Source: Patescibacteria group bacterium
GTDB taxonomy: Bacteria > Patescibacteriota > JAHJAL01
NCBI GenBank assembly: GCA_041648895.1
Contig: JBAZOB010000002.1
Span: 826-64,825, forward strand
DNA: 64,000 nucleotides
Direction: 5' to 3'
Notes under the pieces: model-generated
The model's database searches: none
What the model saw: the letters and a program-made list of their open reading frames with translations, nothing else
Told to the model about the DNA's origin: nothing
In this document: positions 8,658 to 63,015 of the stretch, piece after piece
Position numbering within the stretch: the stretch's first letter is position 1
Layout of the letters: every line of letters begins with the position of its first letter
Made by a program: the position numbers and the translations under genes

Positions 8658-8724
8658 TGTCATCCCCGCTAACCCACCCCACAAATCAATAGAGTTTGCG
8701 GGGACCCCGGAAGGCGGGGATGAC
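8658..8724. repeat. MITE-like palindromic element (TGTCATCC family). Its interior is the reverse complement of a segment of the 2358-2509 copy.
   Basis: The sequence is tgtcatccccgctaacccaccccacaaatcaatagagtttgcggggaccccggaaggcggggatgaca. Flanking direct tgacaa/tgtcat motifs are present. Confidence 0.65.
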
Positions 8725-8773
8725 AGCGATTATTGTCATTCTTGTCATTTGTGATTAATTCCATTATAGACAA

Positions 8774-12193: not shown

Positions 12194-12319
12194 GTCATAT
12201 TAAATGGTATTTTTTTTCGACATCGATATTCTATCCAAAGCGTATCAAAGCGTGTCAAAGCGTTGAATATTGTTGTCTCGTATGCTAAAATTATCTACGT
12301 CTTTATTATTCTCACTATC

Positions 12320-12407
12320 TGTCATCCCCGCCTTGAGCGGGGAACCCATCATCAAGAATATAATCAGCGCGTTGCATAAGAGATCCCCGCTCAAGGCGGG
12401 GATGACA
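12320..12407. repeat. MITE-like palindromic element (TGTCATCC...GGATGACA family)
   Basis: The sequence runs tgtcatccccgccttgagcggggaacccatcatcaagaa...gcgcgttgcataagagatccccgctcaaggcggggatgaca. Closest relative is the interior of the 2358-2509 copy. Confidence 0.7.
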
Positions 12408-12461
12408 TGAACCTTAGTTAATTAGAACAACTCATTAATTATCTATTAATTATCCGAAGTT

Positions 12462-12791
12462 ATGAAAAGTACACCCGGCGAATCTTTACCAGACAATGGC
12501 GAATCTTTACCAGACAATAAAGAAGGCATTGATTACGATATCGACAACCGATATTCCATTCTAGGCATGCTCATCAGTAAAAAAGAGCCAGCTTCACCCT
12601 ACCTGAACAGTATTAAAGAGGCAATAAGCGGTCAAAACCGCGACTCGGGACCGCTGGAGCCCGACGAGGCTATCAAAGGAATGCTAGAAATGGTTACTGC
12701 TAACAAAAACAGAATATCACTATTGAAAAAAGAAATTGAGTTATTGGAAAAAAACACCAAAGAACTGGAAGATTATATTAGAGATTTCTAA
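12462..12791 (+). CDS. Hypothetical protein (109 aa) with an N-terminal direct repeat GESLPDN x2 and a C-terminal coiled-coil-like region
   Basis: Clean ORF. A 21-nt tandem duplication (ggcgaatctttaccagacaat) lies at the 5' end. Confidence 0.45.
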   Translation: MKSTPGESLPDNGESLPDNKEGIDYDIDNRYSILGMLISKKEPASPYLNSIKEAISGQNRDSGPLEPDEAIKGMLEMVTANKNRISLLKKEIELLEKNTKELEDYIRDF

Positions 12792-12883: not shown

Positions 12884-13426
12884 CTATTTTTTCTCCACAA
12901 TCACCCCATATCTCCCATCCGACTTCTTGTAAACCGTATTTGTCCGGCCAGTTTCGTTGTTGGTAAACACATAAAAATCCTGCTGCAATAAATTCATTTG
13001 TTCTTTGGCTTCATCCAGACTCATCGGTTCCTGCTCAACCTCATATGTATATTCATATTCGCCCTCGGTGTCCACCGGCGGCTGACTTTCCATCTGCCGC
13101 AAATGTTCCTTGCTCTGCCTGGCTTCATCAATAATCTTTTCTTTCAATCCCTTGATTTGCGCTGACATGGCCGCCTCCGCCAAATCAATCGCTTCAAACA
13201 ATTCCTGCCCTCGTTGTCGATCCACTCGAATTTTACGTCCCGGCAGAGAAACCAAGATTTCGCAAGAAAAATCCTTACCGTCGTCCCGTTTATCCTCAAA
13301 CTCCAATTCCACCCGCAAAATAATCACGTTACCAAAATATTTCTCCGCCCGGGCCAACTTTTCTTCCACGTAGGCTCTTACATCTGGCGTCATGTCAAAA
13401 TTGCGCGATGACAAAATAAGCTGCAT
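12884..13426 (-). CDS. hpf: Ribosome hibernation-promoting factor (long form)
   Basis: N-terminus 'MQLILSSRNFDMTPDVRAYVEEKLARAEKYF' is the canonical S30AE/RaiA fold signature. The long C-terminal dimerisation extension is present (180 aa). Confidence 0.85.
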   Translation of the reverse strand: MQLILSSRNFDMTPDVRAYVEEKLARAEKYFGNVIILRVELEFEDKRDDGKDFSCEILVSLPGRKIRVDRQRGQELFEAIDLAEAAMSAQIKGLKEKIIDEARQSKEHLRQMESQPPVDTEGEYEYTYEVEQEPMSLDEAKEQMNLLQQDFYVFTNNETGRTNTVYKKSDGRYGVIVEKK

Positions 13427-14690: not shown

Positions 14691-15487
14691 AACATTTGTT
14701 GATTAATCTTCCCAATAATTTTATTATGTATTACCTCATCATTACTGGCCAATATCTGCTTATCATCAAATTTCCACTCCTGCCCTTGCCAATTAGTCAC
14801 TGCCCCGCCGGCTTCCTGGATTAGTAATATCCCTGCCGCTACGTCCCAAATCCGTGCCTTGTCCAATAGGTAGCTATTTAGACGCCCAACCGCCACATAG
14901 GCCAAAGCCAACTCCGCCGAGGCCATTTCTAATTTTACATGATTATTAGGCAAATCGGGAGTATAATCCAAAACATGTTGACAGCGAGTCTGATTAGTAT
15001 AACCGCCAAAAACTGACTTTGTTACTTGATTCTCCGGCCAACCCTCAATTTTCTTATCATTCAGCCACACCCCGTCACCTTTTTGCCCCCAAAACATTTC
15101 TTGGGTAATCGGGTTATAAACCACCCCCAGCAGCAATTGTTGGCCACGAGACAAAGCAATTGAAACACAAAAAAATGGATTATAAAAATAATAATTACTC
15201 GTGCCGTCCAGCGGATCAATTATCCATAAGTAATCATCCGGGTTATCCTCGATACCACTTTCTTCTGCCAAAAAATCATGATCAGGAAAATTATCTCTGA
15301 TCGTTTTTTTAATAATAATTTCGCTATCAATATCGTCCTGCAAATGCAGCCCAGTCTCGTTTCTTTCCAACACCACTCGTTTTTGGTAAAATCTTAATTT
15401 TAATAAATCACCCGCCCGCTTGGCCGCTTCTTTGGCTACCTCCAAATATTTCTTATCGTTTGCTTCCATATAAATATTATAAATCAT
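14684..15487 (-). CDS. Inositol monophosphatase family protein (SuhB/IMPase-like)
   Basis: 'WIIDPLDGTSNY' and 'WDVAAGILLIQEAGG' motifs. 7-nt overlap with the serS start. Confidence 0.75.
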   Translation of the reverse strand: MIYNIYMEANDKKYLEVAKEAAKRAGDLLKLRFYQKRVVLERNETGLHLQDDIDSEIIIKKTIRDNFPDHDFLAEESGIEDNPDDYLWIIDPLDGTSNYYFYNPFFCVSIALSRGQQLLLGVVYNPITQEMFWGQKGDGVWLNDKKIEGWPENQVTKSVFGGYTNQTRCQHVLDYTPDLPNNHVKLEMASAELALAYVAVGRLNSYLLDKARIWDVAAGILLIQEAGGAVTNWQGQEWKFDDKQILASNDEVIHNKIIGKINQQMLC

Positions 15488-15502
15488 TCACCCCTAATTA
15501 AA

Positions 15503-15670
15503 AATTACAAATTTACGAGTGGCGTGAACTAGTTCTAATATCATCCTAATTATTGGTTTATAACCTGTATGAGCGTGCATAAATAATACTGACCTAGCCT
15601 GAGCGAGTTTTATAAACCAATAATTAGGATGATATTAGAACTAGTTCACGCCACTCGTAAATTTGTAATT
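15503..15670. repeat. ~168-bp near-perfect palindrome (family 2) in the divergent intergenic region. It has a conserved asymmetric core, ttggtttataacctgtatgagcg...cctgagcgagttttataaaccaa.
   Basis: The arms acgagtggcgtgaactagttctaatatcatcctaattattgg and its exact reverse complement flank a ~50-nt non-palindromic core. The core is shared with the element at 19503-19682. Confidence 0.7.
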
Positions 15671-15730
15671 ATCCCATTTTTAATCTACAATATATCAACG
15701 TAATAAATATTAAGGACTACGCGTTTATTT

Positions 15731-16945
15731 ATGGAGGTGAATAAAAAGCATAGCTTTTTTGACACGTTTGTCTATGGCAGTATTCTCATACTGTCGACTT
15801 TTGTTGTCTTTTTTTCCACCCCGGCCTCCCTGCCGGCCCAAGCTAGTCAATCCGGTTGTCAGGCCGATAATTGCCTATTTACCACCAGTATTTTACATCG
15901 AGCCACCAAGATGGAAATTGATAATCAAGGTCAATATTCAACTTTTATCACTCGCCAGGAGTTACTCAATGATGGCCTCAAAGAAGCCGGTCTTGACATG
16001 AGTAGCGGTATCGTCAGTAATCCGCATCGCTATACCGAGCTCAATGGGGGAGATATCAAAGTATCAATTGCCGTCGCTATTATCCCCGTCAAAATTATTG
16101 ACCAAAATCGGGCTTACACTGTCACCACCTCCTATTCCACCGTTAAAAATATTCTTTACGCCTGCAATATTGAGCTTAATTCCAAAGATAAAGTCTATCC
16201 CGCTCTCGATACTCTAGTTACAGCCGGCTCCAATATTGTCATTGACCGCGCGGTGTCCGTCGAAATTGCCTATGGGGAAAAAACCTTCAATTTAGCCACT
16301 CAAGCCGACAACGTCTCGGAAGTGATGGCTGAAGCCAAAGAGGAATTAGATTTACCGGCCGAATTAACCAATCACAATCTTGATCATGATGTATATGCCG
16401 GTCAGAAAATCAGTCTGGTCAAAATAGATGAATCAGAAACCACCGAATTTGAAACTATTAAGCCCGAGACCCAATATCAAAATGATTGGGATATGACAGT
16501 CGGGGAAGAGCAAGTTATCTCTTTGGGTGTCGCCGGCGAAATCATGAAAAAGTATCATTTGACCTTAGAAAACGGTGTAGAAATCAGCCGGGAATTAATC
16601 AGTGAAGAAATAACCAGACCATCCGAACCGACCATAATTGCCGTTGGACAAAAACAACCAGCGGTCACCGCTCCCGCTGATAACTATGCCGCCAGCGGTG
16701 GCCAAGTTGGTACCGCCAGCTGGTATTATCATGGCGACGCTCCGGCCGCGGCCCACCGTGATTTTCCCCGCGGCACCAATTTGCTTGTCACCAATAACTC
16801 CACCGGCGCTTCAGTTGTAGTCGTCGTCAACGATTATGGCCCGGCCCTCTGGACCGGCCGCGTCATTGACCTCAATTCCGTCGCCTTCGCCGCCATCGCC
16901 CCACTAGGACAGGGTTTAGTCGAAGTGACGGTCACACCTTTATAA
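15731..16945 (+). CDS. Secreted G5-domain and 3D (RlpA-like double-psi beta-barrel) domain protein. YabE/Rpf-like peptidoglycan-binding or lytic protein.
   Basis: Signal/TM anchor at the N-terminus, a G5-like segment ('ISLVKIDESETTEFETIKPETQ...IIAVG'), and a C-terminal 'GTASWYYHGDAPAAAHRDFPRGTNLLVTNNSTGASVVVVVNDYGP' region typical of 3D/RlpA domains. Confidence 0.7.
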   Translation: MEVNKKHSFFDTFVYGSILILSTFVVFFSTPASLPAQASQSGCQADNCLFTTSILHRATKMEIDNQGQYSTFITRQELLNDGLKEAGLDMSSGIVSNPHRYTELNGGDIKVSIAVAIIPVKIIDQNRAYTVTTSYSTVKNILYACNIELNSKDKVYPALDTLVTAGSNIVIDRAVSVEIAYGEKTFNLATQADNVSEVMAEAKEELDLPAELTNHNLDHDVYAGQKISLVKIDESETTEFETIKPETQYQNDWDMTVGEEQVISLGVAGEIMKKYHLTLENGVEISRELISEEITRPSEPTIIAVGQKQPAVTAPADNYAASGGQVGTASWYYHGDAPAAAHRDFPRGTNLLVTNNSTGASVVVVVNDYGPALWTGRVIDLNSVAFAAIAPLGQGLVEVTVTPL

Positions 16946-16993
16946 TCAATGAATAATTAATAATGAATGAGTTGTACTAATTAGTCGTTCCCC

Positions 16994-17098
16994 TGTCATC
17001 CCCGACCGGAAGCGGAGCGCTCCGGTTATCGGGGATCTCATCAATAAGACGTTTAACAAAACTTAATGATGAGATCCCCGCTCAAGGCGGGGATGACA
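16994..17098. repeat. MITE-like palindromic element (TGTCATCC...GGATGACA family), >95% identical to the copy at 50662-50766
   Basis: The sequence runs cctgtcatccccgaccggaagcggagcgctccggttatcggggatctcatcaataag...gatgagatccccgctcaaggcggggatgaca. It is flanked by partially inverted gagttgtactaattag / ttaattagcacaactcat sequences. Confidence 0.75.
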
Positions 17099-17160
17099 TG
17101 AGGGAGATGTTTAATTAGCACAACTCATTCATTATTAATTATTCATTATTAATTATTTAC

Positions 17161-17928
17161 GTGCCCAAATTTTCCCAAAATTTTTTAATTGACACACGAG
17201 TGCTGCCAAAAATGATTCAGGCAGCTTCTTTAAATAAAGATGACGTCGTCATTGAAATCGGGCCGGGTAGGGGAGTCTTGACTAAAAAATTATGCGCCGT
17301 GGCCAAACAAGTTATCGCCATAGAAATTGATGCCACTTTAGCCCCCAAACTGCAAGATATACAAAACGAATATTCCAATTTGAAAATTATCTATGGTGAT
17401 TTTACTACATTTAATTGGCGATCATTGGTAGTCGGTAACAATTTCAAAATTTTAGCCAATATCCCCTATCATATTTCCGGCTTGATTATTCGCACAATAT
17501 TTGACACTGATCAAAAACTGCCCACCGACGTTGTTCTGATGATGCAATATGAAGTCGTCAAAAAGATAGTCACCAAACCTGATGATCGGACTGTCCTTTC
17601 TAACTTAATCGAATTGTTCGGTCAGCCCAAAATAGTGGCTAAAGTCGATAAAAAGTCCTTCCGTCCCACTCCAAAAGTTGACTCCGCCGTTGTCGCTATC
17701 AATAATATCAAAAAGCCCAATGTAGACGATTTTGATCAATTCTTCCGTATTATCAAAATTGGCTTTTCCCAGCGCCGCAAGACCATTCTTAATAATCTTT
17801 CGCACGGTCTAAAAATCGACAAAACAACAACCCGAGAATTATTATCACAAGCCAATATTGATCCAACTCGCCGCGCCCAGACCCTTTCCCTGGAGGAATG
17901 GAAAAGGTTATACTTATACATTAGATAA
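17161..17928 (+). CDS. rsmA: 16S rRNA (adenine1518/1519-N6)-dimethyltransferase
   Basis: 'FSQNFLID' (GQNFL motif), SAM-binding 'VIEIGPGRGVLT', GTG start, 255 aa. Confidence 0.85.
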   Translation: MPKFSQNFLIDTRVLPKMIQAASLNKDDVVIEIGPGRGVLTKKLCAVAKQVIAIEIDATLAPKLQDIQNEYSNLKIIYGDFTTFNWRSLVVGNNFKILANIPYHISGLIIRTIFDTDQKLPTDVVLMMQYEVVKKIVTKPDDRTVLSNLIELFGQPKIVAKVDKKSFRPTPKVDSAVVAINNIKKPNVDDFDQFFRIIKIGFSQRRKTILNNLSHGLKIDKTTTRELLSQANIDPTRRAQTLSLEEWKRLYLYIR

Positions 17929-17964
17929 TTTAAAATTTTAAATTTAAAATTTAAAATTTTATAT

Positions 17965-19521
17965 ATGAATAAATTCTACATCACTACTTCCATTGTCTAT
18001 GCCACCACCAAGCCCCACGTCGGGTTTGCCATGGAATTGTTTCAAGCTGACGCTATTGCCCGCCTGCATCGCCTGTATGGGCACGATGTTTTTTTCTTAA
18101 GTGGCACTGACGAAAACGGCTTAAAAAATTATCGGAAGGCCAAAGAGTTGGGCATTAGTCCTCAAGAGCATGTTGATGAAGTGAGTAAATTAGTGAAGGA
18201 TTTTGCTGATAGTCACCAAGTATCACTGACCGATTTCATCCGCACCACTGATCAAAAGCGACATTGGCCGGCCGCCCAAAAACTTTGGCAAATATTGTGC
18301 GACAAGAATTTGATAGAAAAAAAGAAATACTCCGGTCTCTATTGTGTGGGTTGCGAAAAATTTATGAAAGAAACTGAGCTTGATGCCGCCGGGAACTGTC
18401 CGCTCCATCACCAGAAACCCGAACCGCAATCCGTTGAAAACTATTTTTTCAAACTGTCACAATTTTCCGAAACCATCTACCAGAAGATAAAAAACAACGA
18501 AATAAATATCATACCCGGTCCTCGTCGTAATGAAATTTTACAAGTCATCGAAAATGGTTTGGAAGACGTCAGTTTCTCCCGTGAAAAATCTCAATTACCT
18601 TGGGGGATACCGGTTCCCAATGATCCGGAACACGTCATGTACGTCTGGTGTGATGCTTTGACTAACTATATTTCCGCCCTGGGATATGCTACCAATGATG
18701 ATAAATTTCAGCACTATTGGCCGGCCGATGTTCATTTTATCGGTAAGGACATTATCCGTTTTCACGCCGGTATTTGGCCCGGCATGCTCTTGGCGGCCGA
18801 CTTACCTTTGCCAAAAAACATTCTCGTCCATGGCTTTATTCATTCCGGCGGTCAGCGCATGAGCAAAACTACCGGCAACGTCATTGATCCCGTGGAAATA
18901 TCAACCAAATACGGCCCCGAAGCGCTGCGCCTTATACTACTCAAAGAAATTCCCACCTTCGGCGATGGCGATCTAACCATGGACAGAATTGGTGAAATAT
19001 ATCACAGCGAATTAGCTAATAAACTGGGGAATCTTGTCTCCCGAGTAATTGCCATGAATAATAAATATTTTGCCGGCCAAATTCCGGCGGGTAATTACGA
19101 TCAAATAATCAATTTTAGTCTTCCCGACCCCCGCCAATATCTGGAAGGCCAAAACAAATTTGGTCAAATTGATAAATATCTACATTCAACCTGGGAGATT
19201 ATTGAAGCCGCCAATCAATTTGTTGACCACCAAAAACCCTGGGAATTGGCCAAAAACCCCGATCAAACCCAACTCACAACCGTAATACTTAATCTTCTCG
19301 AAACCATTCGCCTCATCGCCATGCTCCTTGAACCAATTTCTCCCCATACTTCTCAAAAAATCCTGGCCGCTATTAATCAAGATTATATCGACAGTAGTCA
19401 CCATCAAACCGATCCCGATAAATATCATCAATTATTACAATGGGGCGGCCTCAAACAACAAGTTAGCATTAAATTAGATCAACCACTATTTCCCCGTCTG
19501 GAATTAGAAATTAGAAATTAA
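17965..19521 (+). CDS. metG: Methionine--tRNA ligase
   Basis: Class I aaRS with a KMSKS-like 'KMSKTTGNVIDP', a zinc knuckle 'CVGCEKF...CPLHH', and an anticodon-binding helical domain. Length is 518 aa. Confidence 0.9.
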   Translation: MNKFYITTSIVYATTKPHVGFAMELFQADAIARLHRLYGHDVFFLSGTDENGLKNYRKAKELGISPQEHVDEVSKLVKDFADSHQVSLTDFIRTTDQKRHWPAAQKLWQILCDKNLIEKKKYSGLYCVGCEKFMKETELDAAGNCPLHHQKPEPQSVENYFFKLSQFSETIYQKIKNNEINIIPGPRRNEILQVIENGLEDVSFSREKSQLPWGIPVPNDPEHVMYVWCDALTNYISALGYATNDDKFQHYWPADVHFIGKDIIRFHAGIWPGMLLAADLPLPKNILVHGFIHSGGQRMSKTTGNVIDPVEISTKYGPEALRLILLKEIPTFGDGDLTMDRIGEIYHSELANKLGNLVSRVIAMNNKYFAGQIPAGNYDQIINFSLPDPRQYLEGQNKFGQIDKYLHSTWEIIEAANQFVDHQKPWELAKNPDQTQLTTVILNLLETIRLIAMLLEPISPHTSQKILAAINQDYIDSSHHQTDPDKYHQLLQWGGLKQQVSIKLDQPLFPRLELEIRN

Positions 19522-19682
19522 CGAGTTGTGTGAATTAATTTTTATATCATTCAGATTATTGGTTTATAACCTGTATGAGCGTTTCTAAATAATACTGACC
19601 AAGCCTGAGCGAGTTTTATAAACCAATAATCTGAATGATATAAAAATTAATTCACACAACTCGTTAATTTCTAATTTCTAAT
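19503..19682. repeat. ~180-bp near-perfect palindrome (family 2) whose left arm overlaps the last codons and stop of metG and whose right arm ends at the next start codon
   Basis: The arms aattagaaattagaaattaacgagttgtgtgaattaatttttatatcattcagattattgg and its reverse complement flank the same conserved core as 15503-15670. The arms are unrelated between the two copies. Confidence 0.7.
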
Positions 19683-19686
19683 TAAA

Positions 19687-20526
19687 ATGTTCCCAGCTTT
19701 CGGCGCGGCGATCGCCTATATTATTGCCACCACAATCAATAAACATCTTTTGTCAAAGGAGCGGATGGGAGTCATTTCCTTTGGGATCTGGCTTTTTATT
19801 TTTTTAGCGGCCATCACCGGACTGACTTTGCCCTGGTTGGGAGAAATTAACTGGGAGCAAGCTCTGTCTATCCACTATACCTTTGCCTTCGCCGCCATGC
19901 TTCTATTGGCCTGCACTTGGAATTATTTCTACTATAGTTGTCTCCAAAAAGATACTCTGGCTGAATTTCAGCTGATGACTATCGTTCAGCCACTTTTGAC
20001 GATTTTTCTTGGCATGCTGGTTTTCCCGGATGAGAGAAACGAAAAAGTCTTTATTGTCACCATTGTGGCCGGTTTTATTTTGATTGCCAGTCACCTCGAT
20101 CGCTGGCGTCTGGAAAATGTCAACGTGACTGTACCCTTGCTTATATCCATATTTTTAGCCGCCGTTGAAAGTCTTTATCACAAAGAATTATTAGTCATCT
20201 ACAGCCCGGCCGCGCTGTATTTCACTCGCACCTTATTTATTGCCATTATTTTCTTTTTAGCCAATCCGAGCCACCTCAAAAAAGTCAATCAAAAGAACCT
20301 TTGGCAAACATTTATCATTGCTTTCTTTGCTGTTTTAGCCATGGTATTATCGTTCTATGGTTATCAGCAGCTCGGCCTGGCCAAAACCAATATCATTCTT
20401 CTCCTTTATCCCATCGGCACCACCATCATTTCTGTCTATATTCTCAAAGAAAGAATCAAAAAAAGAAAACTAGTCGCCTTTGCCCTCATTGTTCTCTGCA
20501 TTATATATGCCTTTATGAACGGCTAA
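19687..20526 (+). CDS. Polytopic membrane protein, possibly a DMT/EamA-like transporter
   Basis: About 9-10 hydrophobic helices and 279 aa. There is weak resemblance to the EamA duplicated 4-5 TM repeat and no diagnostic motif. Confidence 0.35.
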   Translation: MFPAFGAAIAYIIATTINKHLLSKERMGVISFGIWLFIFLAAITGLTLPWLGEINWEQALSIHYTFAFAAMLLLACTWNYFYYSCLQKDTLAEFQLMTIVQPLLTIFLGMLVFPDERNEKVFIVTIVAGFILIASHLDRWRLENVNVTVPLLISIFLAAVESLYHKELLVIYSPAALYFTRTLFIAIIFFLANPSHLKKVNQKNLWQTFIIAFFAVLAMVLSFYGYQQLGLAKTNIILLLYPIGTTIISVYILKERIKKRKLVAFALIVLCIIYAFMNG

Positions 20527-20572
20527 GTTAATATTGCAATTTCTATTATTAATTTTTAATTATTAATTTATT

Positions 20573-21337
20573 ATGTACACCGATACGCATTGTCATCTTA
20601 ATACAATTGAATTTGAAAATGACATCAAAGAAATAATCAGTCGGGCCAAGCGGGCGGAAGTTAATCAAATTATTGTCCCGGGCATTGATTTAAAATCATC
20701 AAAGGCGGCCTATACGCTCGCCCAAAATTTTGACATTATCTCCTCCGCCGCCGGCTATCACCCCAACTATATTCAGACCGCTTCGATTGAAAATCTGGGT
20801 GAATTAGTTGAATTAATCAGTAAGCCGGAAATCGTCGCCGTGGGCGAAATTGGACTCGATTATTATCGCCAAACCACCAATGTGGAAGAGCAACGCAAAA
20901 TTTTCCAATATCTTCTATCTATCGCCTCCCAAGAAGCCAAACCAGCTATCATTCATTCCCGCGCCGCCGAAGAAGACGTTTTAAGTATTCTCCAGGTTTA
21001 TAAACCAGACGGCTTGCGGGGCGTTTGGCATTGTTTTGAGGGTGACCGCGCTCTGGCTACGCGGATTTTGGATCTGGGATTCTATATTGGGTTTACCGGC
21101 AACATTACCTATTCCGACCATCAAGATATTAATGAAGTTATCAAAAATATTCCACTTGATCGTATCCTGATCGAGACTGACGCTCCCTACCTCACTCCCA
21201 CCCCCTATCGGGGTAAAAAAAATGAACCGGCCTATGTCGTGGAAGTAGCGCGAAAAATCGGCGATATCAAAAACATTGCCATTGAAGTCGTCGCCCAAAC
21301 CACCACCGAAAACGCCATTAAATTATTTAATTTATAA
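20573..21337 (+). CDS. tatD: TatD family metal-dependent DNase/hydrolase
   Basis: 'MYTDTHCHLN', 'GEIGLDYYR' and 'IETDAPYLTP' are the canonical TatD motifs. Length is 254 aa. Confidence 0.85.
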   Translation: MYTDTHCHLNTIEFENDIKEIISRAKRAEVNQIIVPGIDLKSSKAAYTLAQNFDIISSAAGYHPNYIQTASIENLGELVELISKPEIVAVGEIGLDYYRQTTNVEEQRKIFQYLLSIASQEAKPAIIHSRAAEEDVLSILQVYKPDGLRGVWHCFEGDRALATRILDLGFYIGFTGNITYSDHQDINEVIKNIPLDRILIETDAPYLTPTPYRGKKNEPAYVVEVARKIGDIKNIAIEVVAQTTTENAIKLFNL

Positions 21338-26528: not shown

Positions 26529-26677
26529 AAATAAACTCCTTAAAAAAATTGCTAATTACAAATTACGAATTATTAAAAATATTTTTTAAATTCGCCATTC
26601 GTAATTATATTAACATTATAAAAAATCCCCAGCACAATTACAAAGCCGAGGATCTTAGCTTGATACAAAATAATAAA

Positions 26678-27813: not shown

Positions 27814-27902
27814 TGATAATGAATAATGAATAATAAATAACGAATAATGAATAATTTATATAATCATCAATTTTCTTCCAAATTGATTATTAATTATTCA
27901 TT

Positions 27903-32673: not shown

Positions 32674-34503
32674 CTATATTTTTTTTAGTAACTCCCTTGC
32701 TTCGCTATTATTATCATCCATTTTTAGTGCCTCATTGAGCTCTTTTTTCGCTTCATCATTCCTGCCGTTCTCTATTAAAACTCGTCCCAAAAAAGTTCTA
32801 ACCCAGGTATTATTTGGTTCAAGATTTTTACATCTTTGAGCAGATTTTAAAGTATTCTTAGTATCACCAAGCTGCATAAAGGCGTGACCCTTATCGTACT
32901 CAGCCCACATCATATTTGGATCAATTATTATTGCTTTATCCAAAAATTCTAAAGCTAATCTTGATTTACCCTCTTTCAAATATTGAGAACCTTCATCTTT
33001 ATATCGATTAACATCTGATTTGAGAAATTTTACCTCGTCTAAATTAGGATTATTGCTATTTACATCTCGGTAGTATTTCATCGCCTCATCATAATCACCG
33101 ATACGAGTTAATATCTCAGCCATAGTAATTTTCACATATGGATTATTCGGAATTTGGTGCAAAGCCGCTTTTTGGAATTCCAATGCATCATCATATTTCA
33201 TCGTTTTTAGTAAAATTGTTGCTGAATCAGCCAACAACCATGGTTCGCCTGGATTCTCTTGACGCGCTTTCATAATATATTTTTCGGCGACTGCATAAAA
33301 ACTCGATTTCAACATTTTAATTGCTTTAGCATGATTACCGGGCTGTATAGTGGGTCTTACCTCAAGGCCAACTTTCCAAGAATGAGCATCTATTTTTGTC
33401 TCAACTTGCGACATATCAATGATGGTTCTATGTTTTCGTGTACTATTAAGATTACTATGCAATGTTTCCACGTTTTTCTGTCTTTTTTTCTCGTCTATTC
33501 TTGTTTCGTGGCTAATGTGATGACAAAAAGCTGAAGGACATGGAACAATGTAGTTTCCCAAGCTCAAAAGTTGCGCAGCCAAAATATCATCTTCAGCTCC
33601 CCAGCCCTTGATTCTTTCGTCATATCCCACCCCAATCTTGATCAAATCTTCTTTTTTGGCAGCAATATTTAATCCCCAGAAAAAGCTATAAGGACCCCAT
33701 TCCCCATGATCAATCCATATATCTTTAGTTTGGCCAAATCTTTTCAAATAATCATAATCAGATAAATGATCATAACACCATCTACCATCTTGTTCTAAAT
33801 CATACGGTAAATTAGGTAAATTACCCTTCAAATTCTCCAAAGAAATTTTTGGATCATCCATTTCAATATGGCCGCGTGCGCCAAACATAATAATATTATC
33901 AAGCTTCTCAAACCTCTTAGCATATTCCTCAATACTATTTGGATTAAGCACCACATCTGGATCATGAAAAATAATATGGCTATTCTTGGCCATATTAACA
34001 CCAGTATATCTGGCTTTTATTGGACCACCATTTTCTTGGCGGCACACTTTAATATTTAAATTTTTAACTAAGCCCTTATCAAATAATTCTTGCACTGCAT
34101 CAGATATATGACTCTCGCCCCTTGTTGATCCATCATCAACTACAACAACTTCCAATCTATCGTTATATTTGTTATTAAACGTGCTCGCTTCGATAGATGA
34201 TAAACATTTTTGTAATCTTTCACCATTGTTATATGCAGGAATAACAATACTTATAGTAGTATTTTTTATTTCGACATTGGTCTCAAAAGATTGATATGGA
34301 TCTTCGGCTAATTTCGATCCAGTTTCCTTTTCATAGTATTTATCCAACTCGTCATAGTTATTACCAAGCTTTTCCAAAATTTCTTTTACTGATTTACCCT
34401 CCAAAGTCATTTGGTCGGCAGTCTTCCGTCTTTCTCGTATTAACTTTTCAATATTATCTGGTAATTTTTTATTTTCCTTTGTCTCATTATTTTCAATATT
34501 CAT
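32674..34503 (-). CDS. Family 2 glycosyltransferase (GT-A fold) with a C-terminal TPR repeat domain
   Basis: 'TISIVIPAYNNGERLQKCL', 'LEVVVVDDGSTRGE' and a DPD motif mark the GT2 domain. C-terminal TPRs include 'AEILTRIGDYDEAMKYYRDV'. Length is 609 aa. Confidence 0.7.
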   Translation of the reverse strand: MNIENNETKENKKLPDNIEKLIRERRKTADQMTLEGKSVKEILEKLGNNYDELDKYYEKETGSKLAEDPYQSFETNVEIKNTTISIVIPAYNNGERLQKCLSSIEASTFNNKYNDRLEVVVVDDGSTRGESHISDAVQELFDKGLVKNLNIKVCRQENGGPIKARYTGVNMAKNSHIIFHDPDVVLNPNSIEEYAKRFEKLDNIIMFGARGHIEMDDPKISLENLKGNLPNLPYDLEQDGRWCYDHLSDYDYLKRFGQTKDIWIDHGEWGPYSFFWGLNIAAKKEDLIKIGVGYDERIKGWGAEDDILAAQLLSLGNYIVPCPSAFCHHISHETRIDEKKRQKNVETLHSNLNSTRKHRTIIDMSQVETKIDAHSWKVGLEVRPTIQPGNHAKAIKMLKSSFYAVAEKYIMKARQENPGEPWLLADSATILLKTMKYDDALEFQKAALHQIPNNPYVKITMAEILTRIGDYDEAMKYYRDVNSNNPNLDEVKFLKSDVNRYKDEGSQYLKEGKSRLALEFLDKAIIIDPNMMWAEYDKGHAFMQLGDTKNTLKSAQRCKNLEPNNTWVRTFLGRVLIENGRNDEAKKELNEALKMDDNNSEARELLKKI

Positions 34504-34549: not shown

Positions 34550-36133
34550 TCATCTTTGAACATCCGAAATAATTTTCATATCGCGCGCCAAGATTAATGA
34601 TGCCGCATGATTCTCATGATAAAACTTTTCCACTTCATAATTATATTCTAGCCCATACTGCTTTGCCATTTTAGACCAATCGGAGCGATTGAGATAATCA
34701 GCTGGGTCAAATTTGTCAGGAAATACTGTTATAAGATTTGCACAATAATTAGCTAATAGATGCCATTTACCGTGATCAGTTGGCAAAACATTATAACCCA
34801 TATTCCGTAATTGATCATTTCTCTCTATGTATCTGTCATAATCTTCAGCAGTCTTTTTAAAACCATGCAATGTTTTAATAATTTCTACCCAATCTTTGTC
34901 GGTAATAACAGAAGCATATTCTTTAAATTTATCCTCTGATACTGTTTTTAAATCTCTTAAGTCGCCGACAAGAAAATCATATTTTTCCCGCCTTTTCCAG
35001 TCCTCAATATCTCTTTTATATCTTTGCCAATCTAGATCTTCGATAGATTTTCTTATCAATTTAGATTTAGAAAACTTATCAGGAAATACCTGTTTTAAAC
35101 TGGCCAAGCTATATAAGTAATTACCTGGTTCCCCTTCCTTCCTCCACCCCAACGTATCTTCAAAAGAATAAAATATTTTTTCATTGATGTTTATTGCAGA
35201 AAATTTTTCTGAGCCTAACAGCACTTTAAGTTTAGGTAATTCAAAAGAAACATCATCCCATTCACAATTCTCTCTACCTAATATCTCAAACGTCTTTTTA
35301 AAATCTCTATTTATCTCTTCTACTTCATACGAAAACGGGAAAATTGGCCCCTCATTCAGATCTTCCCGGCTTGCCCTTCCACTCGACATTGATTTATGCT
35401 CAACCAAATTAAAAGTAGAATCCGAATTATTTTTTTCTTCTATTAAAGATCCAAATAAATCTTTTGCTTCTTTATTGTTGGCATCAATATTCATTGCAGC
35501 CTCTAATTCTTCTCTAGCTTCAGTCATCTTTCCATTCATTATCAAAGCCTTGCCCAAAAAAGTTCTAACCCAGGTATTATTTGGTTCAAGATTTTTACAT
35601 CTTTGAGCAGATTTTAATGCATTCTTAGTATCACCCAGCTGCATAAAGGCGTGACCCTTATCATACTCAGCCCACATCATATTTGGATCAATTACTAATG
35701 TTTTATCAAGATCATCAAGAGCTTTTTGCAATTTTCCCTCTTTTAAATATTTTGTACCCTGATCCTTATAATGATTGGATTGTTCATCAAGAAACTGCAA
35801 TTCTGATAAATTATGATTCAGCTCTCTAGCTGCATCATAATATTGTTTTGCTTGATCATATTGACCCATTCTGGCCAATATATCGCCCATACCAATTTTT
35901 ACATATGGATTATCAGGCATCATTTTCTCTGCTGATCCCTGAAGTTTTTTTGCTTCCTCATATCTAGATCTTTTAAGATATATAGATGCCATATCGTTCA
36001 TTATCCAAGGATCATCTGGATTGTAATGTAATGCTCTTTCTATTAATTTTTCTGCTTCTTTATAGTTCTCTTTTTTCAGCATTTTAACTGCTTCAGAATG
36101 ATTATCAATATTTGTTTTTGTTTCGATGTTCAT
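34550..36133 (-). CDS. TPR-repeat protein (N-terminal ~230-aa TPR module paralogous to the C-terminus of the adjacent GT2 gene) with a C-terminal domain of unknown function
   Basis: TPR helices. The stretch 'PNMMWAEYDKGHAFMQLGDTKNALKSAQRCKNLEPNNTWVRTFLG' is near-identical to the neighbouring gene. Length is 527 aa. Confidence 0.6.
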   Translation of the reverse strand: MNIETKTNIDNHSEAVKMLKKENYKEAEKLIERALHYNPDDPWIMNDMASIYLKRSRYEEAKKLQGSAEKMMPDNPYVKIGMGDILARMGQYDQAKQYYDAARELNHNLSELQFLDEQSNHYKDQGTKYLKEGKLQKALDDLDKTLVIDPNMMWAEYDKGHAFMQLGDTKNALKSAQRCKNLEPNNTWVRTFLGKALIMNGKMTEAREELEAAMNIDANNKEAKDLFGSLIEEKNNSDSTFNLVEHKSMSSGRASREDLNEGPIFPFSYEVEEINRDFKKTFEILGRENCEWDDVSFELPKLKVLLGSEKFSAININEKIFYSFEDTLGWRKEGEPGNYLYSLASLKQVFPDKFSKSKLIRKSIEDLDWQRYKRDIEDWKRREKYDFLVGDLRDLKTVSEDKFKEYASVITDKDWVEIIKTLHGFKKTAEDYDRYIERNDQLRNMGYNVLPTDHGKWHLLANYCANLITVFPDKFDPADYLNRSDWSKMAKQYGLEYNYEVEKFYHENHAASLILARDMKIISDVQR

Positions 36134-39641: not shown

Positions 39642-40397
39642 ATGGAACCAGTCATCTCACTATCGGCTGAGCCAATTGTGCACCTGGGAAGTCTACCAAT
39701 TACCAATACCTTGATAGTGTCCCTGGTTATTTCCGTTTCGCTGATTATTTTTAGTGTCATTTTTAATTTTTTTATTAAACCGGTCCCATCAGGTATCCAG
39801 AATATAATTGAATCGATATTTGAAGGCGCGCTGGATTTTATTGAATCTGTCTTGCAAGACCGCCAGTTGGCTTATCAATTTTTCCCGGTGGTTTTTACCA
39901 TCTTCCTTTTTGTTATTCTTTCCAACTGGATTGAAATTGTGCCTGGCCTGGGCAGCATTGGCATTTGGGGGGAACATCATGGAGAAACCGTCCTAATTCC
40001 CTTTATCCGTTCATCTTCCGCTGACATGAATGTGACTCTGGCCTTGGCGATCTCGGCCATGCTAGCCGTGCAAATATTTGGCACTGTTAAACTAGGTTTT
40101 AGTGAATACGCGGGCAAATTTCTGGTTAATCCATTCAAACAGCCATATATTATCGGTACTTTTGTGGGTTTACTGGAGATCGTCTCCGAATTTGCCAAGA
40201 TTATTTCTTTTTCCTTTCGTCTTTTTGGCAACATCTTTGCCGGCGAAGTCTTGCTTTTGGTTGTCGGCTTCCTTGTACCCTATATAATCCCTTTACCTTT
40301 TCTTTTTCTGGAAATATTTGTCGGCTTCATTCAGGCGCTGGTTTTTTCCATGCTGACGCTAGTGTTTATTAAAAGCGCGACGACAGCGCATCATTAG
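39642..40397 (+). CDS. atpB: ATP synthase F0 subunit a
   Basis: Essential Arg region 'FSFRLFGNIFAGEVLLLVV', 5-6 TM helices, 251 aa. Confidence 0.85.
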   Translation: MEPVISLSAEPIVHLGSLPITNTLIVSLVISVSLIIFSVIFNFFIKPVPSGIQNIIESIFEGALDFIESVLQDRQLAYQFFPVVFTIFLFVILSNWIEIVPGLGSIGIWGEHHGETVLIPFIRSSSADMNVTLALAISAMLAVQIFGTVKLGFSEYAGKFLVNPFKQPYIIGTFVGLLEIVSEFAKIISFSFRLFGNIFAGEVLLLVVGFLVPYIIPLPFLFLEIFVGFIQALVFSMLTLVFIKSATTAHH

Positions 40398-40407
40398 TCA
40401 TTAGTAA

Positions 40408-40662
<255 letters not shown>

Positions 40663-41699: not shown

Positions 41700-41769
41700 T
41701 AACTATTTATTAGTCACCAGCGTTAATAATTAGTCATTAGTCATTAGTCATTAGTAATTATTATTCATC

Positions 41770-43293: not shown

Positions 43294-43384
43294 TTTCCTT
43301 CATTGAAAATTAGAAATTAGAAATTGAAAATTCATCAACTAGGGCAACATATCGGTAACGTATTCATAAACATATAATTGTCCC

Positions 43385-48740: not shown

Positions 48741-48869
48741 AATCTAAATCTTATCATTTCTCATTCCTAATTTCTAATTCCTGATTTTATTTATCAATAA
48801 ATTGCATCCGCGACAAAAATTAACTAAAATAAATTATGTAACGTTTTCCATCCGTGAAGAAAGAAAAAC

Positions 48870-49796: not shown

Positions 49797-49804
49797 AAGA
49801 TTAT

Positions 49805-49885
49805 GTGAGCAGTGAACAGTGAACAGTGAACAGTAAAAAACTGAATTACTTGTTATTTACTCACTGCTCACTGCTCACTGTTCAC
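49805..49885. repeat. 81-bp palindrome built from tandem GTGAACAG octamers, in the intergenic region between co-oriented ABC genes
   Basis: The sequence gtgagcagtgaacagtgaacagtgaacagtaaa...tttactcactgctcactgctcactgttcac forms a ~30-bp stem. Confidence 0.7.
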
Positions 49886-49905
49886 TTCTAACTTATCATT
49901 ATCAT

Positions 49906-50628
49906 ATGCCATCCAAATTAACTCAACTAAAAGCCATTATCCAAAAAGAGCTGCGAGTTTATTTCAACTCACCCATTGCCTATATCTTTTTAGTCGCCTT
50001 TTTGGGTTTTACTTTCTGGTTGTTTTTCCGTAATTTCTTCTTGGTTGGTCAGGCCGATGTGCAATACATGTTCGATGTTTTACCTTGGATCTACTTATTG
50101 CTTATCCCCGCCATGACCATGCGCCTCTGGGCGGAAGAAAAACGCGGTGGCACAATTGAAAATCTCTTAACTTCTTCCGCTCCCTTGTCCATCTCCGTTT
50201 TGGCCAAATTTATTGCCAGTTTAATTTTCTTGCTAATTACCCTGGCAGCCACTTTACCCCTGCCGCTTATTGTTTCTTCTTTAGGCCCGCTGGATTGGGG
50301 GGCCACCTTGGCTGCTTATCTGGGAGCGATTTTACTCGGCAGTAGCTATATAGCTCTGGGATTATTATTGAGCTCGATTACCAATAACCAAATCGTCGCC
50401 TACATTATCTCCTCTCTGGCTTGTTTCGCTTTATTTATCATTGCCCAACCGCTCGTGACTATTTCTTTGCCGGCCTTCATTATTCCAGTCGTCGACTTTA
50501 TTAGTTTCGGCTCCCACTATGATTCCATTGTCCGCGGCGTTGTCGACACCCGAGATTTAATATATTACCTTTCTTTTATTGGGTTAATGTTATATTTAAA
50601 TGCTTATGTTTTATTCGCAAAAAAATAA
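49906..50628 (+). CDS. ABC-2 family transporter permease (GldF-like)
   Basis: 6 TM helices, 240 aa, immediately downstream of the ABC ATPase. Confidence 0.7.
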   Translation: MPSKLTQLKAIIQKELRVYFNSPIAYIFLVAFLGFTFWLFFRNFFLVGQADVQYMFDVLPWIYLLLIPAMTMRLWAEEKRGGTIENLLTSSAPLSISVLAKFIASLIFLLITLAATLPLPLIVSSLGPLDWGATLAAYLGAILLGSSYIALGLLLSSITNNQIVAYIISSLACFALFIIAQPLVTISLPAFIIPVVDFISFGSHYDSIVRGVVDTRDLIYYLSFIGLMLYLNAYVLFAKK

Positions 50629-50661
50629 AAATTAATGAGTTGTGCTAATTAGTCGTTCCCC

Positions 50662-50766
50662 TGTCATCCCCGACCGGAAGCGGAGCGTTCCGGTTATCGG
50701 GGATCTCATCAATAAGGCGTTTAACAAAACTTAATGATGAGATCCCCGCTCAAGGCGGGGATGACA
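50662..50766. repeat. MITE-like palindromic element (TGTCATCC...GGATGACA family), >95% identical to the copy at 16994-17098
   Basis: Same ~105-bp sequence with 3 substitutions. It lies between the permease and gldG-like genes. Confidence 0.75.
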
Positions 50767-50828
50767 TGAGAGAGATGGTTAATTCACGCCACTCATTAAT
50801 TCTTAATTTCTAATTCCTAATTAAATTA

Positions 50829-52487
50829 ATGTTTCACTCGTCCAAAATATTTTTATTCACCGCTTTATTTGTAATTCTAAACATACTATCCAGTATGCTT
50901 TTCACCCGGTTCGATTTTACCGCCGGGCAAATATATACTTTGTCAAATTCCACTCGGCAAATAGTTGATAATTTACCCGAAGGGATAGAAATCAAGGCCT
51001 TTGTGTCCAATAATTTGCCGGCCCAATATGTTACCTCCAAAAATCAACTATTGGATAAATTGGATGAATATCGCAATATTTCCGGTAAATTATCGGTCAA
51101 TATCTATGATCCGGTTAATGATACCGCGGCCGCCAGCCTGGCTGAAGCTCTGGGCATTCCTTCGCTTGATCTGCAAGCGGTGGAAAAAGATCAATATCAA
51201 GTCGTTAAAGCCTATTTTGGTTTAGCCGTTTTAAAACATAAATCTGATGCGTCGAACCCTAGTGATAACAGTAATTCCGGGCCCTTGGCCGACTATGAAA
51301 AGCAAGAAGTTCTGCCGGTTATCCAAAGCTTGAACTCTTTAGAATATGACTTAGGCTCAATGCTTCTGAAAGTTGGCTCAAATGAGCAAATGACCATCGG
51401 TTTTCTGACCGGTCACGGCGAACATGGTTTTGCATCAGCCAACTCCTATTTTACCGGCGCCAATGTCAATCCTCGTGATGACTACACCATCTGGCAGACT
51501 TTGAGTCGCAATTATCATGTTATTCAGATTGATCTGTCAGCCGCTCCCGCTGTGGAAAACAGTGATAACCAAGATCCATTAGCCAGCGTTGATACGTTGG
51601 TAATTGCCGGTCCGACTCAAGCTTTTAGTGAAGAAGATATCAATCAAATCCATAATTTTGTGCAAAACGGTGGTCAGGCCATTTTACTCATTGACAGTAT
51701 GAATGTCGATTTACAGTATTCATTGTCCGCCTCGACTTTACCGGAAAATTACCAGCAATTATTGGCCCCCTGGGGAGTGAGAGTCGATAATAAATTAGTC
51801 GCCGATGCCAACAATGACATGGCCAGTTTTAACCAAGGTTATGTTACCTATTCTTTGCCTTATCCATATTTTGCGAAAGTTACCGATTTGAGTGAAGATA
51901 ATGTCATTACTCGTGATTTGGAATCAATCACCTTGCCCTGGACTAGCCCACTCGATATTACTGACATTGAAGGGGTTAGTATCGAAAAAATAGCCTATTC
52001 TTCGCCTCATTACAATTTAGTTACCGAAAATACCGTCGCCGCGCCAGCTGACACTACAAATCTGGCTGACGAAACCGATACTAGTGTCGCCGCCAACCCC
52101 GCCACTCAAACCGAACCAATTGATCTAAATCCCCAACAAGATTTTAATATTTCCAGTCAAGCCAAAGATCCGGTCACTCTGGCCGTTATCGCCAAAAAAA
52201 ATAACGAAGGGCAAGTTTTAATTATGGGTGATTCTGATTTTTTAAGTCAAAATTTTCCCGGCAATGAAATATTTTTTCAAAATGCCGTTGATACTTTTAC
52301 TCTCGGTGACACCCTGATCCAAATCCGTTCCAAAAATATCACTGATCGCCCCCTCCGGCCTTTAACTGAAACAAAAAAAGACACCATTCGCTGGGGCCTG
52401 ATCATTGGCATACCGCTCTTATTTGTCCTCTATGGCATTTTCCGCCGCTGGCAACGTGTTAATTTAAAAAATGCCAGCCAGATTTAA
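50829..52487 (+). CDS. GldG-like auxiliary component of an ABC-2 exporter (N- and C-terminal TM anchors, large periplasmic/extracellular domain)
   Basis: N-terminal anchor 'IFLFTALFVILNILSSMLFTRFDFTAGQIYTLS' and a C-terminal TM 'WGLIIGIPLLFVLYGIF'. 552 aa, in an operon with the ABC ATPase and permease. Confidence 0.6.
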   Translation: MFHSSKIFLFTALFVILNILSSMLFTRFDFTAGQIYTLSNSTRQIVDNLPEGIEIKAFVSNNLPAQYVTSKNQLLDKLDEYRNISGKLSVNIYDPVNDTAAASLAEALGIPSLDLQAVEKDQYQVVKAYFGLAVLKHKSDASNPSDNSNSGPLADYEKQEVLPVIQSLNSLEYDLGSMLLKVGSNEQMTIGFLTGHGEHGFASANSYFTGANVNPRDDYTIWQTLSRNYHVIQIDLSAAPAVENSDNQDPLASVDTLVIAGPTQAFSEEDINQIHNFVQNGGQAILLIDSMNVDLQYSLSASTLPENYQQLLAPWGVRVDNKLVADANNDMASFNQGYVTYSLPYPYFAKVTDLSEDNVITRDLESITLPWTSPLDITDIEGVSIEKIAYSSPHYNLVTENTVAAPADTTNLADETDTSVAANPATQTEPIDLNPQQDFNISSQAKDPVTLAVIAKKNNEGQVLIMGDSDFLSQNFPGNEIFFQNAVDTFTLGDTLIQIRSKNITDRPLRPLTETKKDTIRWGLIIGIPLLFVLYGIFRRWQRVNLKNASQI

Positions 52488-52512
52488 TGAATAATTATTC
52501 ATTATTAATTAT

Positions 52513-53121
52513 TCATTTATAATTTGTTATTCTGACTCCCACCTCCGCCAAAAATAACCCCAAAAAAGCTCCCGCCATCACATCGATTACAAAATGTACT
52601 CCCAAATAAACTCGGGAAAAAGCCACTAAAAAAGCCAACAGATAAAACGCCAAATTTATTTTGGCGTTATATTTATAATGATTTGTCAAAAAATAAGCGA
52701 TAAAAAAAGCAAAGGCACTATGCCCGCTTGGGAAACTATATTGCCACATCAGGTTCGAAGAAACTAACTGGGCCACGCCCGGGATATCTTCAAAGGGGCG
52801 CAAACGGGCTACATAGGCGTTGAGAAACAAATATATGATCGACAATAATATCATCAACAAACCCGTCATCAAAACCGCCGACCGGTCTTTTTTGTAGGCC
52901 AGATAAACTAAAAACAAAAAAACACCCACATAACTGCCCAAAGTATAACGAGTAATGAAAATCAGCCAATCAGTTATTGTCTGGCTATGTAGAGCATCAT
53001 AAATTACCAGAGTGATATTTTTATCCCACTCTCCGCCGAAGGAAGTCCCATAGAGCCACCACATCAAAACAAACCCGCCGAGATAAATCCAGTGTGTATA
53101 GCTCTTTCTGGCTATCTTCAA
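52513..53121 (-). CDS. PAP2-family membrane phosphatase (undecaprenyl-diphosphatase/lipid phosphatase-like). TTG start.
   Basis: 'PSGHSAFAF' and 'SRVYLGVHFVIDVMAG' are the PAP2 catalytic motifs. 6 TM helices. Confidence 0.75.
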   Translation of the reverse strand: MKIARKSYTHWIYLGGFVLMWWLYGTSFGGEWDKNITLVIYDALHSQTITDWLIFITRYTLGSYVGVFLFLVYLAYKKDRSAVLMTGLLMILLSIIYLFLNAYVARLRPFEDIPGVAQLVSSNLMWQYSFPSGHSAFAFFIAYFLTNHYKYNAKINLAFYLLAFLVAFSRVYLGVHFVIDVMAGAFLGLFLAEVGVRITNYK

Positions 53122-53173
53122 TTTAATATTTCCCTAATTATTAATTCCAAATTTCTAATTCCTGATTTTAAAG

Positions 53174-62680: not shown

Positions 62681-63015
62681 CGAATTTTAAATTTTAAATT
62701 TTAAATTTTAAAATAATTTAAAATTTCTAAATGTCTAAATTTAAAAACAGCATAAAGACAGGAACGTTTTAGCCTATAAAATTTAATCATTTATAATTAT
62801 TTTAAAATTTAAAATTCATTAACTAACAAAAATGCCTAAAAAATCATCCAAAAAACAATCCAAGGATATTTTCATGCCCGCCGAGGCCAATCCGAGCTTT
62901 GAGCGGCAGAAAAAAAGTAAATTTATCGCTCGCACCAATCAGGAAAAAGGCAAAAAAATAAAAAATGCCCTCAAAAAATAGTGTAATATCATTAATAAAT
63001 ATTTATTAACTAAAT

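Follow-up and report, generated by a model that had tools for sequence, protein, structure and literature searches.

The Rickettsia palindromic elements (RPEs) ascribed to Ogata et al. 2000 are reportedly palindromic repeats, ~100-150 bp long, which can be incorporated into protein-coding genes; they are said to lie in-frame inside genes and to be translated as internal peptide segments. Among hairpins that stay between genes, the closest described systems are the doublets of repetitive extragenic palindromic (REP) sequences known as REPINs and the miniature inverted-repeat transposable elements (MITEs), including stable bacterial MITEs such as Chunjie, whose hairpins have predicted folding energies of -98 to -130 kcal/mol according to a review (PMC3184786). 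At the level of mutation, template switching is documented to homogenize and expand the arms of inverted repeats and to invert their spacers (PMC13100816, PMC8604942, PMC7202029). A literature search found no description of dispersed hairpin repeats in the Patescibacteria (candidate phyla radiation, CPR). Here, we analyze two long palindromes, A and B, in a stretch of 64,000 nucleotides from a Patescibacteria group bacterium (GenBank assembly GCA_041648895.1, contig JBAZOB010000002.1, positions 826 to 64,825 of the forward strand), hereafter the window, in whose own numbering positions are given. We read them as members of a MITE/REPIN-like family of intergenic hairpins whose arms have been homogenized and extended in place by replication template switching, a reading to which we assign a probability of roughly 0.6.

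Both palindromes consist of two perfectly complementary arms around an asymmetric loop:

15503..15563: left arm of copy A, 61 nt, 100% complementary to 15610-15670 and homologous to the arms of other copies
15564..15609, + strand: loop of copy A, 46 nt, asymmetric, reading CCTGTATGAGCG-TGCA-TAAATAATACTGACC-T-AGCCTGAGCGAGTT
15610..15670: right arm of copy A, 61 nt, 100% complementary to the left arm
19502..19569: left arm of copy B, 68 nt, 100% complementary to 19616-19683
19570..19615, + strand: loop of copy B, 46 nt, differing from the loop of A at 4 positions
19616..19683: right arm of copy B, 68 nt, in which 19665-19683 is the repeat TAATTTC x2.7

The perfect palindromy had been recognized in the initial annotation, and it holds over the full length of these arms. 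The asymmetric core of ~50 nt described there is indeed shared by the two copies, but only 46 nt of it are truly non-palindromic, the rest being a conserved inner stem (TTGGTTTATAA/TTATAAACCAA). In copy A, the palindrome has a gapped, weaker continuation at 15495-15502 / 15671-15684. The predicted folding energy is ~-97 kcal/mol on either strand (z ~-20), and the core motifs occur exactly twice in the window, where shuffled sequence leads one to expect 0 occurrences.

The arms had initially been called completely different between the copies, which proved mistaken: over a length of 175 nt, the two copies share 85% identity, with 82-83% cross-complementarity between their arms. The arms differ at about 11 positions, every one of them mirrored in the opposite arm, and a difference in kind is limited to the outermost part of the arms, comprising AT-rich 7-nt repeats and whatever lies beyond them. 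The inner arm and the loop that both have in common mark A and B as copies of one element, as opposed to inverted duplications of local DNA that arose separately.

Copy A lies between divergently transcribed genes. Copy B overlaps the end of metG (open reading frame [ORF] 17965-19521), as had been noted before: the final 20 nt of the gene (19502-19521) fall within the left arm, which encodes the codons ELEIRN and the stop and begins with the 7-nt repeat AATTAGA x2.7 (19502-19520). The right arm, which had been thought to run to the next start codon, does reach its vicinity but ends at 19683, 3 nt short of the ATG at 19687 that opens an EamA/DMT transporter gene. The loop of A contains a 5-codon ORF (+ strand) and a longer one (- strand), neither of which is conserved in B.

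A and B belong to a dispersed family with at least ten copies in one Patescibacteria metagenome-assembled genome (MAG) of ~1 Mb. A 20-mer from the stem-loop junction recovered seven further copies on metagenome contigs, and a profile built from these nine recovered a tenth, more diverged copy; the proteins flanking the copies carry accessions MFA4930336-MFA4931227 and come from the same NCBI MAG as the window. Mirrored arms accompany the core at these sites, but, in a departure from the initial expectation, only the outer parts of the arms are specific to each locus. All copies lie between genes, with arm ends that sometimes overlap a stop codon; the elements measure ~140-250 bp and contain no conserved ORF. 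The loop, of 46-48 nt in the close copies (57 nt separate the arms of the diverged tenth copy), follows the consensus CCTGTATGAGCG-NNNN-TAAATAATACTGACC-N-AGCCTGAGCGAGTT, with a 4-nt hypervariable patch. The loop pattern found no family copy among 185,579 representative genomes, the window's own genome not being among these GTDB representatives. The stem pattern and junction 20-mer had no match in viral contigs, and distant blastn had none in plasmids. A single match to the loop pattern in a Trueperaceae MAG lies in a GC-rich coding region without a palindrome and was set aside as chance.

Conservation within the family is graded from the apex outward. Among the nine close copies, mean pairwise identity is 89% in the loop and 85% in the arms; it reaches 97% in the inner 15 bp of the stem (ATTATTGGTTTATAA) and is 80% at stem positions 16-52, which are still homologous. 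Beyond ~52-56 nt, the arms run into AT-rich 7-nt repeats (AATTAGA, AATGAAT, AATTACG and similar), into which inter-copy homology fades, so that the true termini of the element are undefined. In the four copies designated L006, L009, L004, and L007, the arms continue for a further 20-50 nt of copy-specific sequence that is still perfectly mirrored. It is to these outer segments that the idea of a locus-specific flank copied as an inverted duplication, put forward in the initial annotation, can be confined. The inner ~52-56 nt of each arm, by contrast, are homologous in all copies, at 85% mean pairwise identity, and most of the arm hence travels with the element. Donors for the copy-specific outer arms were sought in other loci of this MAG, where only generic matches to 7-nt repeats were found.

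Throughout this divergence, the two arms of each copy have stayed together. Arm length varies from 56 to 103 nt across copies at 99-100% complementarity, and the nine close copies contain 1 mismatch in 681 arm base pairs. In the alignment of all ten, 98.6% of the cells form pairs, and both partners have changed in 31 of the 56 stem pairs (60 cells). A single G:U pair among 553 cells is the only one-sided change; 0/500 shuffles reach the observed values, and no slid register comes close. Insertions and deletions of 1 nt and the counts of 7-nt repeats are likewise mirrored between the arms. Mismatches are retained in the sequence where present, namely in L007, in L010b, and in two further hairpin families of this genome, C and D, described below. 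This exclusively Watson-Crick symmetry points to symmetry at the level of DNA and not to selection on RNA, because wobble pairs and bulges would be expected to persist in a helix selected as RNA.

Differences between copies that are mirrored within each copy, together with palindromes that extend into copy-specific DNA, call for a process that copies one arm from the other. The likeliest such process would be replication template switching at quasi-palindromes, as in the Ripley/Lovett model, or an equivalent hairpin-templated repair. One arm would serve as template for the other, correcting mismatches and mirroring indels, and the palindrome would grow outward into the flanking DNA until it met constrained coding sequence; the position of the metG end inside the B arm would be a consequence of this growth. 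The conserved loop and inner stem would then be the part probably needed for spread, and their higher conservation does suggest a requirement in either spread or retention. By analogy only, a hairpin-recognizing HUH/Y1 transposase, similar to the REP-associated tyrosine transposases (RAYTs), is a candidate for the mobilizing enzyme. The concept of palindromes that homogenize themselves and grow outward is plausible but unproven.

The setting of the copies is consistent with such growth. In most of them, the end of an arm falls within or at a stop codon or lies 3-15 nt from a start codon, and the element occupies at least 86% of the intergenic gap in ~6 of the 8 fully bounded cases. At L009 and L006, the palindrome overlaps the stop codons of both convergent genes, and C-terminal protein tails are supplied by other copies as they are by B for metG. 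Relative to co-directional flanking genes, the loop has the same orientation in 4-5 cases and the opposite one in 2. Template switching would explain both why arms end at or in flanking genes or just before start codons and why loop orientation is unbiased.

AT-rich 7-nt arrays are also found in many intergenic regions that carry no element, often directly upstream of start codons. Examples of period-7 arrays in the window are the following:

17927-17959, 20545-20573, 26546-26572, 27816-27855, 40391-40417, 41729-41760: period-7 arrays
43302-43332, 48756-48787, 50797-50822, 52490-52524, 53136-53160, 62683-62746: period-7 arrays, continued

Their units include AATTAGA, ATTAGTC, AATGAAT, AAATTAC, and others. 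The sequence AATTNNNAATTNNNAATT has 19 occurrences against 0.13 expected, and the 16-mer AATTAGAAATTAGAAA is found identically at 43308, without a hairpin element. Similar arrays are present in two element-free relatives, L011 and L012; in L011, whose methionyl-tRNA synthetase (MetRS) is 77% identical to that of the window, 7-nt repeats stand directly upstream of the EamA ATG, again with no element. Since these repeats are native to intergenic DNA, their mirrored presence on both arms of an element implies copying. A separate, GC-richer pair of mirrored 7-nt arrays (GTGAACA x4.3 / CTCACTG x3.9) occupies 49802-49895, upstream of a gene starting at 49906; its arms of 33 nt are 85% complementary and 28 nt apart.

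The same genome holds other hairpin families that share this architecture, family D being an example. Coordinates with an L designation refer to the locus of that name and the others to the window:

16943..17155: family C, between a G5-domain gene and rsmA/ksgA; arms 87% complementary, interior 106 nt
50620..50823: second family C element, 90% identical to 16952-17155
1924-1987, 2409-2494, 12303-12453: partial copies of family C
L007 1097-1327 and 7507-7693; L009 3782-3996 (= L016 13680-13894): family D, which has 6 copies
L016 7130-7310 and 15819-16029; L004 1-169: family D, continued
L004 2690-2832; L007 10854-11052; L008 8117-8320: single hairpins E, F, and G

Family C elements have an interior of 94-118 nt with GC-rich REP-like hairpins GATCCCCGCTCAAGGCGGGGATGAC (GTCATCCCCGC..GCGGGGATGAC), which in the element at 16943-17155 differs from that of A and B, and their arms are only 77-87% complementary. 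They share with the A/B family a mid/outer arm motif made up of 7-nt repeats and TAAYGAGTTGYRYKAATTA, as well as the semi-conserved arm unit TAAYGAGTTGYGTGAATTA, the most variable part of the A/B stem; the outer arm of the element at 50620-50823 resembles the B arm at 87% over 39 nt. Template switching would explain why family C is not homogenized, given its long structured spacer. Family D has a conserved asymmetric loop of 71 or 73 nt, a conserved inner stem (ATTAGTCATATATCATTTATTTTAATTA), and arms that are 94-100% complementary, the few mismatches being confined to outer copy-specific 7-nt repeats. Its 73-nt loop could encode a hydrophobic peptide of 31 residues in some copies, with an early stop in L004. 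The single hairpins, each present once among the sequences examined, have arms of 46 nt (100%), 79 nt (99%), and 64 nt (92%) and loops of 41-76 nt. Repeats of 7 nt flank the elements of families A/B, C, and D alike. Patescibacteria genomes are small, and hairpin families crowd the intergenic gaps of this one: at least four families fill a large share of the gaps in the regions examined (five elements in 21.5 kb at L016, a region chosen for its A/B copy), while ~26 kb of two relatives contain none.

Several other repeats were seen in the window. A 64-nt GC-rich REP-like sequence forms an inverted pair at 2358-2421 and 8662-8725, 100% identical and 6.2 kb apart, which has several genes between its members, a radical-SAM MiaB-like gene and thrS among them, and could serve as a substrate for inversion. 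At 12477-12518, a 21-nt unit (GGCGAATCTTTACCAGACAAT x2) is duplicated exactly in tandem, downstream of a family C fragment and in a possible small ORF. A 460-nt stretch with 75% identity recurs at 32689-33146 and 35456-35913 within adjacent genes on the - strand, 32674-34503 and 34550-36133, which look like tandem paralogues.

Syntenic relatives with 65% and 77% MetRS identity allow a comparison between species, not strains. Both keep the gene order serS, inositol monophosphatase, G5, rsmA, metG, EamA, tatD, priA. The gap between metG and EamA, occupied by B, measures 27 nt or 51 nt in the relatives and 165 nt in the window, and such an element-free state had been anticipated in the initial annotation. 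The G5-rsmA gap, the site of a family C element, is 33 nt in the relatives compared with 215 nt here; at the site of A, the relative's gap of 163 nt compares with 243 nt in the window, and no element was detected in it. No inverted repeats of at least 24 nt were found in ~26 kb of the relatives' syntenic sequence. Because the relatives are syntenic and lack an element at the B and family C sites, the elements appear to be additions in the window's lineage, presumably by insertion. MetRS homologues stop 2-8 residues past the conserved ...LFPR, and in the window's protein it is the arm that encodes the ELEIRN tail; the tails of the relatives, IEDEDKN and IDDVDKN, weakly resemble its LELEIRN.

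A number of points weigh against the combination of a mobile hairpin and template-switched arms. We found no transposase or parent insertion sequence (IS) with matching ends among the few window ORFs scanned for one, nor, as far as the Y1 type is concerned, any transposase in ~150 kb of the genome. The flanks of nine copies show no consistent target-site duplication, L007 alone having a possible 9-bp direct repeat (AATAGTAAA). The initial impression that the elements resemble neither a terminator nor a textbook MITE was correct. The empty sites are those of relatives whose MetRS is 65-77% identical, and not of sister strains, which makes insertion a deduction; template switching is a deduction as well. 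Assembler bubble-popping could mask a few real arm mismatches. The direction of copying at B is ambiguous: the native 7-nt repeats of L011 favor the right arm as the template, and the weak resemblance of LELEIRN to IEDEDKN and IDDVDKN favors the left. Finally, the imperfect arms of family C (77-87%) in the same genome indicate that homogenization is not universal; it may require a short spacer, or perfect copies may be no more than recent ones. A fast turnover of young copies would indeed be an alternative to arm homogenization.

A more far-reaching form of the same idea, which we offer tentatively and with the odds against it, is that a core hairpin seeded in an intergenic gap has its arms continually rewritten and pushes outward until selection on coding sequence stops it, perfecting itself while overwriting gene 3' ends (the tail of metG being one) as well as 5' leaders. 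Most of the intergenic DNA of this streamlined genome would then have been remodeled by several families of this kind, and their spread may depend on structure, a hairpin or cruciform, and not on sequence-specific transposase ends.

Two alternatives, which we rate as about equally unlikely, account for part of the evidence. The first is a nested insertion, in which only a core (the loop and ~50 nt per arm) is mobile and preferentially enters the dyad center of pre-existing intergenic palindromes; the copy-specific mirrored outer arms would then be a split target and not an extension. Short palindromes of mirrored 7-nt repeats without the core do occur in the window (52486-52503, AATGAATAATTATTCATT; 17922-17963; 62697-62816), and the presence of 7-nt repeats beside every hairpin family would fit such a preference. 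However, this leaves the copy-by-copy mirroring of 31 stem positions in the shared arm unexplained. It also requires that perfect, unique palindromes of 40-100 bp previously spanned both convergent stop codons at L009 and L006, and no such palindromes are seen in the element-free relatives.

The second is a system of the REPIN-RAYT type, in which a domesticated Y1 (HUH) transposase, present as a single-copy gene, works on single-stranded hairpin DNA to copy REP doublets, and the arms are perfect because selection favors a transposition substrate that folds. REPINs form hairpins from conserved units, and compensatory changes are common in them (PMC3116915), the lack of a target duplication fits Y1 transposases, and family C combines GC-rich REP-like hairpins with an arm motif common to A and B. 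Moreover, the syntenic relative with 65% MetRS identity encodes, between the Ham1 gene and serS, a 175-residue protein that resembles Y1/HUH transposases (- strand of L012, 4900-5427; L013 and L014 carry the identical sequence). This protein scores 27 bits against the Pfam Y1_Tnp cutoff of 23, has HUH and Tyr motifs, and has homologues named RayT. Yet this relative has no elements in the region compared, and tblastn with RAYT homologues found no Y1/RAYT-type homologue in the window or in ~150 kb of this MAG. At the position of the RAYT-like gene, the window has no gene, HPF abutting serS; the ORF at 12884-13426 was considered as a RAYT and rejected, being this ribosome hibernation factor (HPF). 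The A/B arms are AT-rich without a GC-rich REP sub-hairpin, conservation peaks at the apex and not at the ends as in REPINs, and selection for folding would allow occasional mismatches.

A structured RNA, as had also been suggested at the outset, is disfavored to the point of being improbable. A cis-regulatory hairpin, RNase III site, mRNA stabilizer, or small RNA kept by selection for RNA pairing would account for the very strong covariation, the conserved loop, and the extreme predicted stability, and many bacterial MITEs act as RNA hairpins (PMC3184786). The near absence of G:U pairs, the lack of other one-sided changes, and the mirrored indels described above argue the other way. In addition, copy A lies between divergent genes, and the orientation of the loop relative to flanking genes is inconsistent among copies. 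A consensus scan found no promoter-like or terminator-like site within either loop; the single promoter-like match near the elements (15663-15691) overlaps only the last 8 nt of the A right arm. An Rfam search of 15300-19900 (E<=5) returned no family at threshold and only generic miRNA-hairpin matches, the best of which, the MIR7996 hairpin, scores 56 bits against a gathering score of 119.

The palindromes are no assembly product, a concern raised when they were first noted. At another copy (L009/L016), the JGI assembly and the MEGAHIT/ENA assembly agree in every base over 5.2 kb. The Logan k=31 contigs that contain metG and the PEGA-domain gene both end exactly 30 nt, or k-1, into the outer arm, which is where a de Bruijn graph would have to branch if a perfect inverted repeat began at that base in the reads. 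The L004 protein versions P0132 and P0133 differ only by start-codon translation and reveal no strain variation. Foldback chimeras, or arms equalized by de Bruijn bubble collapse, are barely credible even though the MAG comes from short reads and assemblers can merge near-identical inverted arms, given that one conserved loop recurs at ten loci, that mismatches survive in L007, L010b, and families C and D, and that arms of 56-103 nt are probably shorter than the final assembler k. Also rejected were attC/integron and retron origins (the neighbors are housekeeping genes, with no adjacent reverse transcriptase or integrase) and an intrinsic terminator (none is called at either element, there is no T-run, and A lies between divergent gene starts).

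With ten copies, 31 mirrored stem positions, and hardly any wobble, the family offers a natural data set for the concerted evolution of inverted repeats, one in which copying at the DNA level can be told apart from selection at the RNA level with unusual clarity. It also carries a warning, in that covariation in such repeats can pass for evidence of a functional RNA. If outward growth of the arms is true, template switching rewrites gene ends and leaders genome-wide.

Compared with described systems, the A/B family resembles REPINs (Bertels & Rainey 2011, PMC3116915) in being short, non-coding, intergenic, and present in multiple copies in one genome, each forming one long hairpin. Common compensatory changes, no expected target duplication, and a largely lineage-specific distribution are further likenesses. 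REPINs, however, are ~70-110 nt long and have GC-rich REP units conserved at their two ends, with a less conserved middle. The A/B family is most conserved at its apex, the 46-nt loop and inner stem, and most variable and copy-specific at its ends; its AT-rich arms are much longer, at 56-103 nt, and practically free of mismatches, and the sequence examined (~150 kb of the MAG) contains no RAYT.

The stable bacterial MITEs (Chunjie in Geobacter, Nezha in cyanobacteria, Correia/NEMIS, and ERIC/RU-1; PMC3184786) are alike in size, in being non-coding and intergenic, in overlapping gene ends, and in the folding energy predicted for their hairpins, of about -100 kcal/mol. With classical MITEs, the family shares small size, lack of coding capacity, multiple copies, terminal inverted repeats, and empty sites, here between species. 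Unlike in classical MITEs, neither terminal repeats matching a parent IS nor target-site duplications were found. The arms of MITEs decay independently, whereas those of the A/B family co-vary perfectly, and the palindrome outruns the sequence shared between copies.

The products of template switching (Ripley 1982; Lovett) resemble the A/B arms in their perfection and mirrored indels, and the growth of arms into flanks that the process predicts is suggested here by the copy-specific mirrored outer arms and by the native 7-nt repeats of L011. Template switching is, however, a mutational process and not an element family, and its documented events involve arms of ~7-25 bp. To our knowledge, no natural bacterial genome has been described in which it acts in a sustained way on an entire family with arms of 56-103 bp. 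The contribution to coding sequence recalls the RPEs, with the difference that the A/B elements reach no farther into genes than their 3' ends and for the rest occupy intergenic DNA.

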